From Octopus vulgaris (lineage: Eukaryota), in NCBI GenBank assembly GCA_951406725.2, contig OX597814.1, positions 71,486,001 to 71,550,000 on the forward strand: a stretch of 64,000 nt of DNA, given 5' to 3'. This document shows, piece by piece, positions 19,973 through 28,099 of this stretch; within the stretch, counting starts at the first letter, position 1, and every line of letters begins with the position of its first letter. Under the pieces are notes generated by a model. The model did no database searches. It was not told where the DNA came from and saw nothing but the letters and a program-made list of their open reading frames with translations. The translations under genes were made by a program, and so were the position numbers.

Positions 19973-20447
19973 GTTTCAAATTTTGCCACAAGGGCAGCAA
20001 TTTTGGGGGAGGGGACATTAACCCCACTGTTTAACTGCTACTTATTTTATTGACCCCCCAAAAGATGAAAGACGAAGTTGATCTTGGCAGAATTTGAACC
20101 CAGAACATAGTAACGGGTAAAATACTGCTAAACATTTCTGCCTTAAATAATAATAGTGATAAGAGCAATCAGAGAGTGCAAACCTCCACCAAGGCAACAC
20201 CAACATCCTCTCAACGAGTAGCCAGAGATGATTTTTAAAATGAGAATATCTGACTGCTCTCACAAATGAGAATACTGAAAATGAATCCAACCGCTCTCAA
20301 AAATTCAGTAAAAAGCTAGAAAAATAATCCAGAATCTTTGTCTGGTAGCAGATCGTTCCCAAAATCTAACCGGTTCATGTGAGTCACAAGGCCAAACAAG
20401 GTTCTTGAAATACCTTGTCCATGGACAAACAAACAAACACACTGAAA

Positions 20448-20615
20448 CACTGGCACAGGTGCTTTTCAGTGCAACTGACACAGGTGCCTTTTCTGTACAA
20501 CTGGCACAGATGCATTTTATGTGTCACTGGCACAGGTGCCTTTTATGTGTCACTGGCACAGGTGCCTTTTAAGTGACACTGGCACAAGTACCTTCTACAT
20601 GTCACTGGCACTAGC
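20448..20615. repeat. ~26-bp tandem repeat (CACTGGCACAGGTGCCTTTTATGTGT), about 6 copies
   Basis: Direct reading. Confidence 0.85.
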
Positions 20616-22301: not shown

Positions 22302-22521
22302 TTCTTTAGCTTTCAGATTCTTCTATCAAATGTAATGACTACTTATTCACATTGTTTTGAAATTATCATGTTTTAACATGTTGCTTTGAGATTTTGATGA
22401 TGTGACTGTTTATTTATTAAATGACTTAGAAGTGTGGGTGTGAGAGGCTAGATCTGGTCAGTTTGAACACGGACATGGTAGAATATTTGGGCTGGACATG
22501 GTCAGTTTAAATGCTAAAGGG
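22302..22521. mobile_element. piggyBac-type MITE (TTAA target site)
   Basis: TTAA-TTCTTTAGC...GCTAAAGGG-TTAA. Reverse-orientation relative of 25561-25779. Confidence 0.7.
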
Positions 22522-25500
22522 TTAAATCAAGAGTTCTGAAGATAAACACTTTCCCTAATTTTTCCTGAACTATGGACATGTTCAAGCTGAACATCAACGA
22601 CATCAATTTCACCAGACCTTGAGAACCTGCAAAGATCACAGGTACTGTTCCCACTGTTTTGATTGATGTTAAATGCTATGAATATTTATAGATTCAGCCA
22701 AAAATATCCCAGACTTTTCAACTTTTATTTGTTAACATTTTAAATTTTGATAATTAACTAAATAAAAGTACTTTATAATACTTTTTAAATTTTATTTTCC
22801 ATGGTAATAAATCAATATGTTTGATGTTTGTAGAACTTAATACTTTCAAAGTACCCAATACTTTAACAAAGGCACATTGATATTTAACTGTTGGTGAAAT
22901 GTTATTTACAAATACAGGAAAAGATTTCTCCCTAAATATAAAATGGAAAATGGAAAAATTTTGAATGTGACAATCAAACATTGAAAAAACTTCAGCTCAC
23001 ACATTACCTTCAGGTTTGGAAAACTGACTAGTCAAAAATGTTTGTGAAGCAATCAGTATCTTTAATTGTAATGCAGAAGATGTTGAAAGTTGTGGATTGC
23101 AATAAACATTTGTGAATTCATCCCTGTATCAGGGTTACACATGCACACATTATTTTAAGACATATGAGGCATATGCAAATGGTATGAGAAACAATAAAAA
23201 TACAAAATATATTTAATGGATCTTATTTTCTTACATAAATTATAGCAAAATCTGGAAATGTATGAATTAATATCGTTTTCCACTTATGGTTTTGTAACAG
23301 ATATTACTACTTTTATAAAAGGTGAAAATAATTTTGTACTAAGCTTTCCTATGAAAACCAGACTCTAGCACTCCATTATTTATCTAAATCCATTCTGATA
23401 ATCCCTGACTAAACTTGACAGTGCTTCAATAACACCAAATATAAAATAAATATTTATTATAAAGAAATACAAAATAAAAACAAAACACTGATATCAGAAA
23501 TATGAATTAGTTTTATAAATACAATATCATACCATCCCATCTATTTTTGATCTTGCAGAACTAAGTAAATATGATAAGAAGGGAATATTGAAATTTTGCA
23601 GAGAGTCAGCCCTTCCATATGAAGTTCCAGAGTTTATTGATTTAAAATACAGAGCTGGCAGAATACAGAAGGGAAACTTGACTGGTAACAAAACTCATCA
23701 GGACATCCCTAACTACCCATTTCCCCTTGTTTTCAAAGTACATGGTAGTGAACAGATACAGAATAATATCATTTATCCCTCCTACCAGAAACGATGTTGA
23801 GGAAGGGGAGGAAATGAGGGGCATGCACAAGGTTATGTTGAAAGATGCAACAGATGTAGAGTAGTATAAATAAAATAAAGCATCTGTTTTTATCACCAAG
23901 CCAATTAGTCTATATCAAAAGACTCTGAAGAAGGGAGAGAGGCTGGTATCAGTTTACAATGAAATGGAGAGAATGAGGGAAGAGATTTAAGAGAATAAAA
24001 TACATAAAATATATTTAAAGAAAAACAGTGAAATTATAGTAAAAATATGGTAAATGTAAAAGAGAGATGGAATAATCTGAAAATATTGGCAAATAATACA
24101 AAGTGGAATGGGAGGTGGAGAACATTTCCTACTTTCCTAAAAGGCACAAGACTGTTGAATGAATTTGTAACTAAAAACTCTGAAAGAGTTGAAAAACAAG
24201 CTTTTACTTCAAATCAAAGGATTATGGCAGAACTATTTTCAACAACTTTGAGTTCTAAGTACAGTACTGAAAAGAGATATTACATCACAAATAACTGATA
24301 GTATGGAAAGTGAAGCAATGGAAATGGTCTGAAGTCCAGTTTCAGAATATTTACAATGACAGCAAGTTTACTACAGTGTACTTTGTCTTTGTTAAATTTG
24401 TGTACTTGATGAGAAATGATTGAGAAAAACAAAGTAACACAAACAAATTTGTCAGTTTTCTGCCTTGGCAAAGAAAGGACACACTTTCTTTGGTGGTAAA
24501 CTTAATTCCATTATCCTATTTAACCCTTGGGTGCTATTATTAGAGTCCATTCTGTTGGAAGCATTTAAGCCAGATCACTAGTCTGAAGATGACTTCCTCC
24601 CATCAGTTAGGGAGGCTCTGAAAAGGTGTCATTGGAAGATAAAAGATTTTAAAACTGTATCTGTTATACATAATGAGACTAGCAGAATAAACAAGAACAA
24701 AATAACTTTCAAATATGAGATGTTTTTATGAAATGAAGAGGGAAAACATCAAACAGCTTGCATGACTTGTATCACTACCAATAGGATTTCTAACATGATA
24801 AACTTCTTTACATTAATTATCAACTCAAACACATCACATTACATTTTCTGTAAGTTAGGAAGAATACAAACTATTTATTTAATTTGTAATTAACTGCAAA
24901 CATTACTTTTTTTTTTTTTAAATATATTTGACATGAAGAACAACTTTAGACTAAAACAAAGACTGTAAAATAGATAAACAAATAAATAAATAATCATAAC
25001 CGACAAACAATCAGCCTTGGTTATCTAAGCTAAAATTTTTTCTTAATTCACTTTGATGGATACATTTTGAAACTAGGGCCCAAGTTATTTACTTTCTAAG
25101 AAAGAGAAGCTTGAAATAAGTCAGATCTGTTCATAATAAATTCACGAAACTTCAAATTATTTTCATAAACTGCTAGATTTGATCAATGCGGTACAGGAAA
25201 AATATTGTTACAATGATACACAGAATTTCAAATTTTAAAAATTACCAAAGTTTTAAGAAGAAAATGATTCCTAAAATACCAGTACCAAATAATAATAATA
25301 ATAAGAAAACTGTATATAACTAATGAAATTCAGAAATTAAGTTGTGTTTAGTAACTTTCAATGCTTTGGATATGCAGTAATTTAAAATTAGATTTCAGTA
25401 CAGTGAATCTAATTAAAGTTACCATTCTCAGTATTTTTTTAAAATTTTGATTGGTTTTACAGAATAATCTATGTGCTACTCAATAAGCCTCTCAAAATGT

Positions 25501-25560
25501 ATCAACAGATGGTAAACTTAGAACAGTATTTCAAAAAAGGGGGCTATAATTCCCCCTTAA

Positions 25561-25779
25561 CCCTTTAGTATTTAAACCGGCCATATCCGGCCAAAATATT
25601 TAATCTGCCTTACGTTCAAACTGACCAGATCCAGGCCCTCACACCTACCCTACAATGCTATTCTACATTAAGTAATTACACCATCAAGATCTTGAAGATA
25701 TGAGATAATGCATGATTAATTCAAATCAATGGGAATCAATAAGCATTATGTTTAATAGAATAATCTGAACACTAAAGGG
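25561..25779. mobile_element. piggyBac-type MITE (TTAA target site)
   Basis: TTAA-CCCTTTAGT...ACTAAAGGG-TTAA: terminal inverted repeats with a TTAA duplication. Confidence 0.85.
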
Positions 25780-26238: not shown

Positions 26239-26464
26239 TTATAAATGTAATTTAGTGCTAAGGGGAGCACAGATGAGTTTATAAAATCAAAACAGGGCCT
26301 TTGAACAAAACCTGCTGAGAATTGCTGTTGGTACTTTAAACAAGAGCTTCACAGCTATAAATTAAATGGATAAACTATAGTAAGGTCCAATGTATAAGCA
26401 TTCTTGAGAAATAAGAATTTTTCTTTTCATTTGACAGATATTTGTCCTCATCTTGTTTGTTGTT

Positions 26465-26510
26465 AACACAACATTTCAGCTGATGTACTCTCCAGCCTTC
26501 ATCAGGTGTC
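26465..26510 (-). ncRNA. Minimal type I hammerhead ribozyme motif (Penelope-associated, CpG-decayed)
   Basis: GACAC-CUGAUGA-AGGCUG..CAGCU-GAAA-UG-UU-GUGUU. Stem I is GACAC/GUGUU and stem II is GCUG/CAGC. Confidence 0.7.
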
Positions 26511-26567
26511 CTGGGAGAATTTTGAACCTGGGTTCTCATTCCTAAGGTACTTTTCCAATTATTATTC

Positions 26568-26641
26568 AGGTCACTGCCTGGAATCGAACTCGGAATCTTG
26601 GGGGTTAGTAGCCCATGCTCTAACCACTACGCCATATGCTC
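26568..26641 (-). promoter_or_regulatory. tRNA-derived Pol III cassette (A and B boxes) within the PLE terminal repeat
   Basis: A box TGGCGTAGTGG, anticodon-like arm GGG-CTACTAA-CCC, B box GAGTTCGATTCC. The B box is deleted in the right-arm copy (~27209-27270). Confidence 0.7.
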
Positions 26642-27331
26642 ACGGGCAAGTATGGAGTGAATTTTAGGGCTTATAAATTTAATATTTTCCTTTCCTTAAT
26701 ATCAGTTCCCATATGCTACTCATATCTGCACTCGGTCTGCTTAGGAGGTTATTATGTCCTAGCATATATGCTGCCTCTTTTAGTTTTCATATTTTCCAGT
26801 GGTGTTCTCTGTCTTTTATTTTAACTTCATCCCACAGGGGGAGGTGGTCTCCGTTTTTCCATACATGACCAGCTATACCCGATTTATCAATATCTCCTCG
26901 TGTCACAGCTTTGCAATGTTGCTCTACCCTTATTTTGAGGGGGTGACACAAGGAGATATTGATAAATCGGGTATAGCTGATCATATATGGAAAAACGGAG
27001 GCCACCTCCCCCTGTGGGATGAAGTTAAAATAAAAGACAGAGAACACCACTGGAAAATATGAAAACTAAAAGAGGCAGCATATATGCTAGGACATAATAA
27101 CCTCCTAAGCAGACTGAGTGCAGATATGAGTAGCAAATGGGAACTGGTATTAAGGAAAGGAAAATATTAAATTTATAAGCCCTAAAATTCACTCCATACT
27201 TGCCCGTGGGCATATGGTGTAGTGGTTAAGAGTATGGGCTACCAACCTCAAGATTCTGAGCAGTGACTTGAACAACAACAACATCAGAAAAATACCTTAG
27301 GAATGAGAACCCAGGTTCGAAATTCTCCCAG

Positions 27332-27377
27332 GACACCTGATGAAGGCTGGAGAGTACATCAGCTGAAATGTTGTGTT
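27332..27377 (+). ncRNA. Minimal type I hammerhead ribozyme motif (second arm)
   Basis: GACAC CTGATGA AGGCTG GAGAGTACAT CAGCT GAAA TG TT GTGTT. Confidence 0.7.
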
Positions 27378-28099
27378 AACAACAAACAAGATGAGGACAA
27401 AAATCCATCAAATGTAAGTAATGCGCATAATTCCTCACCTCTCAAATATAGAACTGAATTTTTCTTTTGTTATTATTCCAATTAATCTTTTTTCCATTAG
27501 AAAGGTGTATAAAGGTGTGAAATATTTTACTTCATATAGTGATACTAAGTAACGTGAAGAAATAAAATATTCTAAAGAGCAATGTTTCACTAAAAAATGC
27601 CAGAAGCATTTCAAGTTAAGTTTACATCAGAAGATTTCCAGGTGTTTGTTCTTTGTTGTGACACGTACTAGTAACAGATGCAATCAATATTTATCTATAT
27701 TTAGATTTGTATAAATTTAAGTGTTTCAGCTTAGACATTACTTTTTTTTTTAAGAAACTTTTTAATATTTAAATAAATATTCATCTACTTTTTATCACTT
27801 TGGCCAGATTTGAAATTTTTTCTGGCTCTGAATCAGAAGTCCAGTCTTTGAGATAGAGTTCTAGTAGTATTATATATATAGTTTTTTTAAAAATATTTTT
27901 GTTGTACATTATTCACATGAAAAGAAACTGCTTTCTTGGTGTATAATGACTATATCTTACAGGAGTACGTTTTTGAGATTTCTATACATAGAAGTAATGT
28001 AGGTGGCATGAAGCATCTAGATTGCATGTTATTGTTTATCACCTGGTCTAAGCTGTGAAAATCTAGTCATTGTTTAAGGTATAATGTATCCCTGACTAT

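Follow-up and report, generated by a model that had tools for sequence, protein, structure and literature searches.

A Penelope-like element of Octopus vulgaris with a likely RNA polymerase III promoter that may drive transcription of its entire coding region

A palindrome in the genome of Octopus vulgaris combines in its arms the end of an endonuclease open reading frame (ORF), a tRNA-like sequence and a hammerhead ribozyme core. Such an arrangement raises the question of what a tRNA-like sequence is doing inside a Penelope-like element (PLE), and by which polymerase such an element is read. Here we present an analysis of this palindrome, which lies in a stretch of 64,000 nucleotides (the window, to which all positions without a sign refer), and of the family of copies to which it belongs. 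By its domain plan the family is a Poseidon-type PLE, and it carries a likely RNA polymerase III (Pol III) promoter. Judging from the sequences of its copies, Pol III probably transcribes the element, perhaps over all of its coding region.

An old palindromic insertion

The palindrome consists of two inverted arms, as originally predicted. Positions 26621-26906 match 26943-27228 at 97 % identity and 26425-26555 match 27287-27417 at 95 %, while the identity over the whole-arm alignment is 90 %. Reading outward, each arm contains the end of the GIY-YIG ORF, the tRNA-like head, an AAT/AAC tract, the hammerhead core and the 3′ end. The features are listed below, signed positions being those of the family unit with the head at 0.

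26416..26427, plus strand: left target-site duplication, 12 bp (13 counting the preceding G)
26428..26942, minus strand: left arm, a 5′-truncated copy from about -306 to +240 of the element, with no tail
26465..26510, minus strand: minimal type I hammerhead, core 26470-26505, stem I GACAC/GUGUU
26537..26539, minus strand: start codon of the family ORF (+115), upstream of the hammerhead
26568..26641, minus strand: tRNA-Arg-like head of the left arm, with A box and B box; no folding tRNA
26641..26648, minus strand: arm of the leader hairpin (-7..0), where family 5′ ends pile up
26670..26677, minus strand: word with TATAA, some 25-28 nt ahead of the inferred start; weak, in an AT-rich context
26679..26942, minus strand: C-terminal GIY-YIG endonuclease fragment of the left arm, with an in-frame TGA
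26943..27456, plus strand: right arm, a 5′-truncated copy from about -269 to +272 of the element
26943..27170, plus strand: C-terminal GIY-YIG fragment of the right arm, with an in-frame TGA as in the left arm
27208..27267, plus strand: damaged tRNA-like head of the right arm, B box deleted (13-nt gap)
27332..27377, plus strand: minimal hammerhead of the right arm, core 27337-27372, identical to the left one
27418..27456, plus strand: one-sided PLE tail, the sequence between the two 3′ sites, which is ORF sequence in whole elements
27457..27468, plus strand: right target-site duplication, the 12-bp direct repeat partner

The 12-bp target-site duplication had been absent from the earlier description of the locus. 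The arms meet 5′ to 5′ with zero spacer; the 36 nt between the aligned stretches belong to the left arm, which extends further in the 5′ direction than the right one. The left arm ends at the first (inner) 3′ site and the right arm at the second (outer) one. The terminal extension noted in the right arm only is real and corresponds to 27418-27456. Both arms carry the end of a GIY-YIG ORF, as had been proposed: the endonuclease fragment matches an Anolis PLE protein with 26 % identity (E 2e-6 in a single comparison). Relative to the family majority, the arms have 21 differences in common and 8 and 12 private ones over 446 columns. Some of the common differences recur in a few other family copies. 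Either the arms were copied from a template that had itself diverged beforehand, or they were homogenised later. The locus is an ordinary decayed PLE insertion, and an old one.

The tRNA-like cassette had been announced for both arms. Its boxes are intact in the left arm (minus strand), with the A box TGGCGTAGTGG at 26624-26634 and the B box GAGTTCGATTCC at 26580-26591; in the right arm the B box is deleted and the A box at 27215-27225 carries a CpG change, TGGTGTAGTGG. The loop of the leader hairpin at 26641..26648 is inverted relative to most family copies. ARAGORN made no tRNA call for the left or the right head, and lowered thresholds gave noise everywhere.

A minimal hammerhead core is present in both arms at the expected places, 26470-26505 on the minus strand and 27337-27372 on the plus strand. 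The predicted cuts fall between 26470 and 26469 on the left and after 27372 on the right. Both hammerheads differ from the family by two CpG lesions, one in the stem II closing pair and one turning C15.2 into U, so that the copy at this locus is probably inactive. The Infernal search with tRNA and hammerhead models that had been suggested as a check was of little help: Rfam listed the hammerhead for neither arm and gave no useful tRNA match for the head (best tRNA 13.2 bits, E 6.5). Two other readings of the ribozyme were dropped because their stem I fails to pair, whereas that of the minimal reading pairs. One was a type I form in which a long stem III leads to a GUC further downstream; the other took the right-arm ribozyme as type III.

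At the level of the family, the concern that the consensus might be without a cleavable core was checked. The majority core GAAAC-GUU is predicted to fold with both helices and looks cleavable, and the majority shows the features of minimal PLE hammerheads: CUGANGA, helix II, GAAA-N-N-UH with a palindromic 15.2-16.2, and a short helix I. Among 232 copies, CTGATGA occurs in 131, CTGAAGA in 40 and GAAACGTT in 73. Upon co-folding, the dimeric hammerhead did not come out as the predicted lowest-energy form.

The window contains further repeats. A tandem array of about six copies of a 26-nt unit occupies 20442-20611, and another short repeat is present in two opposed copies 3 kb apart (22420-22525 and 25557-25662). 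Non-LTR-type reverse-transcriptase ORFs of 1,065 and 528 codons, at 4229-7426 (plus) and 34035-35621 (minus), are unrelated to the Penelope palindrome.

The family unit and its tRNA-like head

The family majority is a unit of 2,652 nt that comprises, in order, the head, (AAT)n, ATG, the minimal hammerhead, the tail, the RT-GIY-YIG ORF, 32 nt and the next head. With the head at 0, the start codon is at +115, the predicted hammerhead cut at +185 and the ORF stop 32 nt before the next head. The unit circle was closed by an upstream walk with real copies, in which the tail seamlessly enters the N-terminus of the ORF, and in one copy (L432) the sequence runs collinearly from a point within the head, across the complete ORF, and into the head that follows. 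Another copy (L435), considered as a unit-length permuted copy, was rejected as it is actually an internal deletion. At the inner 3′ site, a 9-nt unit (window 27409-27426; +232..+253) varies in copy number with the ORF frame kept.

The single ORF spans 835 codons in the family majority and encodes a reverse transcriptase with a C-terminal GIY-YIG domain. RVT_1 was found in two of four real fragments, with none in the two endonuclease-side fragments. The protein has the motifs YVDD at 536, VYSIPCSC...YKG at 727 and CSC at 732-734, with two cysteines between GIY and YIG and no CxxC/linker zinc finger. Two such cysteines are given as a criterion of the Penelope/Poseidon clade in the available text on PLE classification, and a CX2-5CxxC linker finger is attributed there to Neptune/Nematis (PMC8557442); judged by its domain plan, the family belongs to the Penelope/Poseidon clade of EN+ PLEs. 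The protein has 299 homologues, with 57-66 % identity to three of them and 37 % over 808 residues to an 836-aa Anolis protein, which we infer to be the product of the Poseidon element of Anolis carolinensis (PAc). The 30 loci retrieved with the Anolis protein as query are all members of the family, and no relative was found in viral contigs. The homologues P0001-P0004 (52-66 % identical) are low in phenylalanine like the family protein, possibly a clade trait, and the N-terminus of P0002/P0131 resembles the N-terminus that the family encodes across its hammerhead.

The genome (2.8 billion bases) contains 2,899 exact matches to a 34-mer at the hammerhead end, 420 to a probe of the head and 399 to a 34-mer just upstream of the head. 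The fractions of copies with an exact match, 20/213, 5/149 and 23/99 respectively, have small denominators and correct these counts to about 31,000, 12,500 and 1,700 copies, of which the first is a floor because the correction was taken from top-ranked copies. The family is old, with about 5 % non-CpG divergence and no intact copy among those fetched. Short (61) and long (92) copies have identical majority letters and no diagnostic differences, and there is thus no separate SINE lineage. A non-autonomous lineage separate from its partner is likewise at odds with the position of the head inside the coding unit. A screen of sequencing runs returned 20 rows under five organism labels with small shares of the family, and no RNA row was listed.

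The head is a family trait and not a one-off insertion. Among 28 copies chosen by their endonuclease end alone, 25 retain it, with at least 55 nt in 20 and 12-54 nt in five; the remaining three are headless through deletions with differing breakpoints. Most copies would have to be without the cassette if it were an isolated insertion, and these counts support the original view that a tRNA-derived head has become part of the family's pseudo-LTR. The family majority preserves the A box and the B box, whereas the cloverleaf and the acceptor stem have been lost. Compared with 30 host tRNA loci, which include few isotypes, the head is closest to tRNA-Arg(TCG), with both boxes in register (score 61.5, vs 59.5 for tRNA-Arg(TCT) and 55.5 for tRNA-Ala).

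Copies were also selected by the head, in a set of 29 that is biased towards fold-back junctions by the inverted loop of the window. Of these, 25 have hammerhead or tail within 600 nt and only three have the ORF end upstream. A free SINE with the same head and another tail was looked for and is absent among the 29 loci; those without the PLE tail run into long AAT tracts or other sequence. As in SINEs that descend from tRNAs, the 5′ end holds A and B boxes and copies begin at the head. The A-rich or simple-repeat 3′ tail of such SINEs is absent, the 3′ ends being two fixed internal PLE sites.

Related PLEs were examined at 80 metagenome-contig loci, with enough flank after the ORF in 33 and before it in 15. 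The pair of A and B boxes was found in 0/33 after the ORF and in 0/15 before the ORF start, by a search that recovered the element itself and 24/30 host tRNA loci as positive controls. A hammerhead core follows the ORF in 10 of the 33. In one of the metagenome contigs (L331:2517-2590, plus), a tRNA-like A/B-box stretch lies ~480 nt upstream of a truncated related PLE and is probably an unrelated neighbour. In the family itself, the 32-nt stretch between ORF stop and head (window 26642-26675, minus; -34..-1) resembles a degenerate inverted copy of the first 18 nt of the head, which looks as if the head had arrived by fold-back insertion.

The palindrome is the ordinary insertion product of this family. 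Outward-facing pairs occur at 53 of 86 scorable hammerhead-selected loci (two of which are the same place), and in 51 of the 53 one end is near +244 and the other near +272, that is, one short and one long. A flank repeat of at least 8 nt, mostly 8-15 nt, accompanies 34 of the 53 pairs, compared with 73 of 1,706 mismatched controls. The family thereby displays the partial tandem pseudo-LTR, the inverted truncated partner and the one-sided tail of PLEs; its copies are dispersed singles or head-to-head pairs, and retrozyme-type tandem arrays were not seen among them. Many copies (L381-L430) cover no more than 30-250 nt of the ORF beyond the tail before a second tandem copy follows, a pattern that suggests further internal priming sites and template jumps.

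Where copies begin and what reads them

The 5′ ends were counted in the hammerhead-selected set only, since the head-selected one is biased. The hammerhead-selected copies were chosen regardless of the 5′ part: 92 copies at 90 loci from the first 100 hammerhead 34-mer matches listed, all on contig 1. Ends fall in or after the AAT tract in 35 copies, inside the head in 16, at -10..+5 in 32 and further upstream in nine. Accordingly, 41 copies reach +5, and 32 of them (78 %) stop at -10..+5, where the neighbouring truncation rate predicts 3.0. The 5′ edge is hard, with nine ends at -7 and none from -8 to -25, and in the corrected genome-wide counts the head is about seven times commoner than the 34-mer just upstream. 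Read most simply, these ends place the start of the template RNA 6-7 nt upstream of the tRNA-like 5′ end. This point lies 13-14 nt before the A box, where Pol III is expected to initiate.

Such templates would not be confined to the short unit. Four copies start at -8..+3 and run seamlessly to unit positions 307, 447, 612 and 1179. They belong to a set of 72 copies spanning the junction of tail and ORF, of which nine reach the head; these four stop there and five run further upstream, which argues that longer templates exist as well. RNA was checked by mapping three raw RNA runs and one contig set on a long copy. Both strands were covered alike, depth fell from the 3′ end as copy number does, and there were no clustered molecule starts or ends; these reads are most likely read-through of old copies.

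A Pol III transcript of the whole unit would have to pass the ORF free of terminators. The 2,652-nt sense strand has 13 TTT runs and not a single TTTT (T4), TTTNTT or TTNTTT. The ORF alone is expected to contain between 2.9 T4 runs (synonymous shuffle, P 0.028) and 4.6 (P 0.005), and the joint absence of T4 and interrupted T runs has P 0.002-0.009 by ORF shuffles. None of 30 related ORFs of at least 1,500 nt is T4-free, and 33 related ORFs of similar T content predict 5.4 T4 runs for that of the unit, in a test that compares a majority sequence with single contigs. An open stretch of at least 250 codons is present at 66 of the 80 related loci, which have 478 T4 runs against 410 from synonymous shuffles. 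On the other side, T4 is likewise missing from two control ORFs (1,254 and 1,419 nt), G4 is also absent from the unit (1.0-3.1 expected), and the four closest proteins are just as poor in phenylalanine. As a sign of Pol III use, the lack of T4 is suggestive, not decisive.

From these data we favor a model in which RNA made by Pol III from the head reads into, and probably through, the ORF, and in which priming at two internal sites of that RNA yields the copies; we assign it a probability of roughly 0.68. Initiation would occur 6-7 nt upstream of the tRNA-like 5′ end, and the polymerase, which encounters no terminator, would continue into the ORF and probably through it. The protein of the element would then cut both target strands about 12 bp apart, and reverse transcription would be primed inside the RNA at +244 and +272, one site per strand. 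Priming in the first pseudo-LTR would result in run-off at the RNA 5′ end after about 270 nt and thus in SINE-like copies, while priming behind the ORF would give copies like those of the window, running back into the endonuclease. The original prediction of a Pol III product survives in one half: a tandem unit further downstream could be driven from the head, given its position, whereas a short self-cleaving RNA does not fit as the mobile unit. A stronger version, to which we would give somewhat less than even odds, is that an autonomous protein-coding retrotransposon has swapped to Pol III altogether, with a captured tRNA promoter and a 2.65-kb terminator-free mRNA, the same RNA giving rise to full elements and, by internal priming near its 5′ end, to SINE-like copies in the tens of thousands. 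Without a cap, a Pol III RNA requires a cap-independent route of translation.

One point against transcription from the head is that the -7 edge coincides with a 5-bp hairpin able to stop or redirect reverse transcriptase, and many fold-back joints are located at this hairpin. The head could accordingly be a passenger without function, left from a tRNA or SINE head that was once copied into the 3′ UTR, with the pile-up produced by the hairpin at -7..+4 stalling or folding back the enzyme. The lost acceptor stem and the resemblance of the 32-nt UTR to an inverted piece of the head are in line with this possibility. We nevertheless regard it as improbable. Several copies that stop at the head join unrelated flank directly and have the loop in parental orientation, so that fold-back alone is insufficient; the 78 % of arriving copies that stop are far above what is seen at the more stable hammerhead stem II; and a dead passenger explains neither the intact A and B boxes of a sequence that has lost its cloverleaf nor the T4-free unit. 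Alternatively, the head may be a Pol III promoter for short RNAs only, the short copies having SINE-like masters of their own that end in T runs of the flank, the ORF mRNA being made by Pol II and the lack of T4 being due to chance. The 5′ pile-up fits this equally well, short copies are several-fold commoner than long ones, and the T4 deficit has a P of only 0.003-0.03 next to an equal absence of G4. Moreover, the pseudo-LTR promoter of the Penelope and Chlamys elements is described as internal and intron-linked in the text available (PMC8557442). Against it, no alternative majority letter distinguishes short from long copies; copies started at the head enter the ORF as far as position 1179, and none of the 30 long related ORFs is T4-free. 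We consider it unlikely.

A last alternative concerns the ribozyme, in the form of the retrozyme-like unit originally envisaged: the hammerhead, in dimeric form, would cleave a short Pol III RNA, and the cleaved or circularised product would be the mobile unit. The core CUGAUGA...GAAAC-GUU and the palindromic AACGUU do fit a minimal hammerhead of the dimer type as described in the accessible text (PMC4209133), and 10 of the 72 junction-spanning copies begin 1-13 nt after the predicted cut, a window chosen after seeing the data, compared with five in the preceding 26 nt and four in the following 23. However, the 3′ ends at +244 and +272 are 60-95 nt beyond the cut at +185, tandem arrays are absent, the ORF start codon is upstream of the cut, and the anole element is reported, in the text available, to insert with no need of cleavage (PMC11167929). 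We therefore hold this version to be very improbable. Under transcription from the head with two-site priming, the hammerhead may cut part of the RNA and some templates may be cut products; since the ribozyme lies downstream of the start codon, a cut would remove the promoter-derived leader together with the start codon. Hammerhead cleavage is unnecessary to explain the insertions.

Known relatives and significance

The following comparisons draw on the available text of the sources cited. Among the closest systems is PAc, which like the octopus family has a single ORF for reverse transcriptase and C-terminal GIY-YIG, a partial tandem pseudo-LTR, a start codon that precedes the hammerhead cut, a pair of internal 3′ sites, a one-sided tail and an inverted 5′-truncated partner (PMC11167929, PMC8557442). 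In vitro, anole Poseidon was found to cut and extend both target strands and to initiate internally on the RNA at two sites bounding the tail; its hammerhead cuts downstream of the start codon and is dispensable for insertion (PMC11167929). Inverted partners and one-sided tails of PLEs had already been described (PMC8557442). Unlike PAc as these texts present it, the octopus family has a tRNA-derived A/B-box head in its pseudo-LTR, most of its short copies start there, and its unit is without T4 (PMC11167929, PMC8557442). The ribozyme is of the type of Cervera and De la Pena 2014, with no helix III, a palindromic 15.2-16.2, a 5-bp helix I and an unpaired base before helix II; such minimal PLE hammerheads form pairs 100-700 bp apart on opposite strands. 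The family does not differ from them in its ribozyme; a tRNA head is not mentioned for them in the text available (PMC4209133).

Pol III promoters in terminal repeats are known from TRIMp3 elements (Helenus, Ajax, Cassandra), whose tRNA- or 5S-derived promoter probably came from a SINE insertion (PMC10886601). Such elements measure 0.3-1.3 kb and are non-autonomous; they have two direct LTRs, PBS and PPT, and a duplication of 4-5 bp, in contrast to a protein-coding PLE with inverted ends and duplications of mostly 8-15 bp (PMC10886601). In the same source, Kojima 2024 argues that the weak processivity of Pol III forces autonomous partners onto Pol II (PMC10886601). The schistosome Sm-alpha and Sj-alpha likewise unite a tRNA-like head and a hammerhead in one high-copy retroposon, but are non-coding and SINE-like, with no tie to a PLE ORF described in the text available, whereas the octopus family is coding (PMC2770079). 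Animal non-LTR retrozymes share with the family a hammerhead and a link to PLEs, whose machinery they are thought to use; they differ in being non-coding derivatives of PLE pseudo-LTRs, arranged as tandem hammerhead units, and the available texts describe no Pol III head for them (bioRxiv 10.64898/2026.07.22.740005; PMC7761336). A search of the accessible full-text literature found no PLE with a tRNA promoter.

The short unit of the family may have been met before. Ohshima and Okada reportedly described three tRNA-derived octopus retroposons in 1994, two of them tRNA-Arg-like and one of about 270 bp; the latter has the size of the short copies and may be the short unit of this family. We know of no link to a PLE made for these retroposons.

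With its sharp 5′ edge, the family shows how genomic copies by themselves can map where transcription starts, and the asymmetry of long and short ends in 51 of 53 pairs quantifies the two-site, two-strand model of PLE priming. Repeat libraries may class the short copies as SINEs and overlook their PLE parent. In the weaker form of our reading, the family would produce SINE-like repeats without a separate SINE, the PLE priming internally on the Pol III RNA that it makes itself. Should Pol III transcribe the unit from end to end, the family would be a natural protein-coding retrotransposon on a polymerase thought to be too easily terminated, with an ORF purged of terminators and an uncapped mRNA for which the hammerhead and the leader would have a testable role. 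A LINE and its SINE would then be contained in one transcript.
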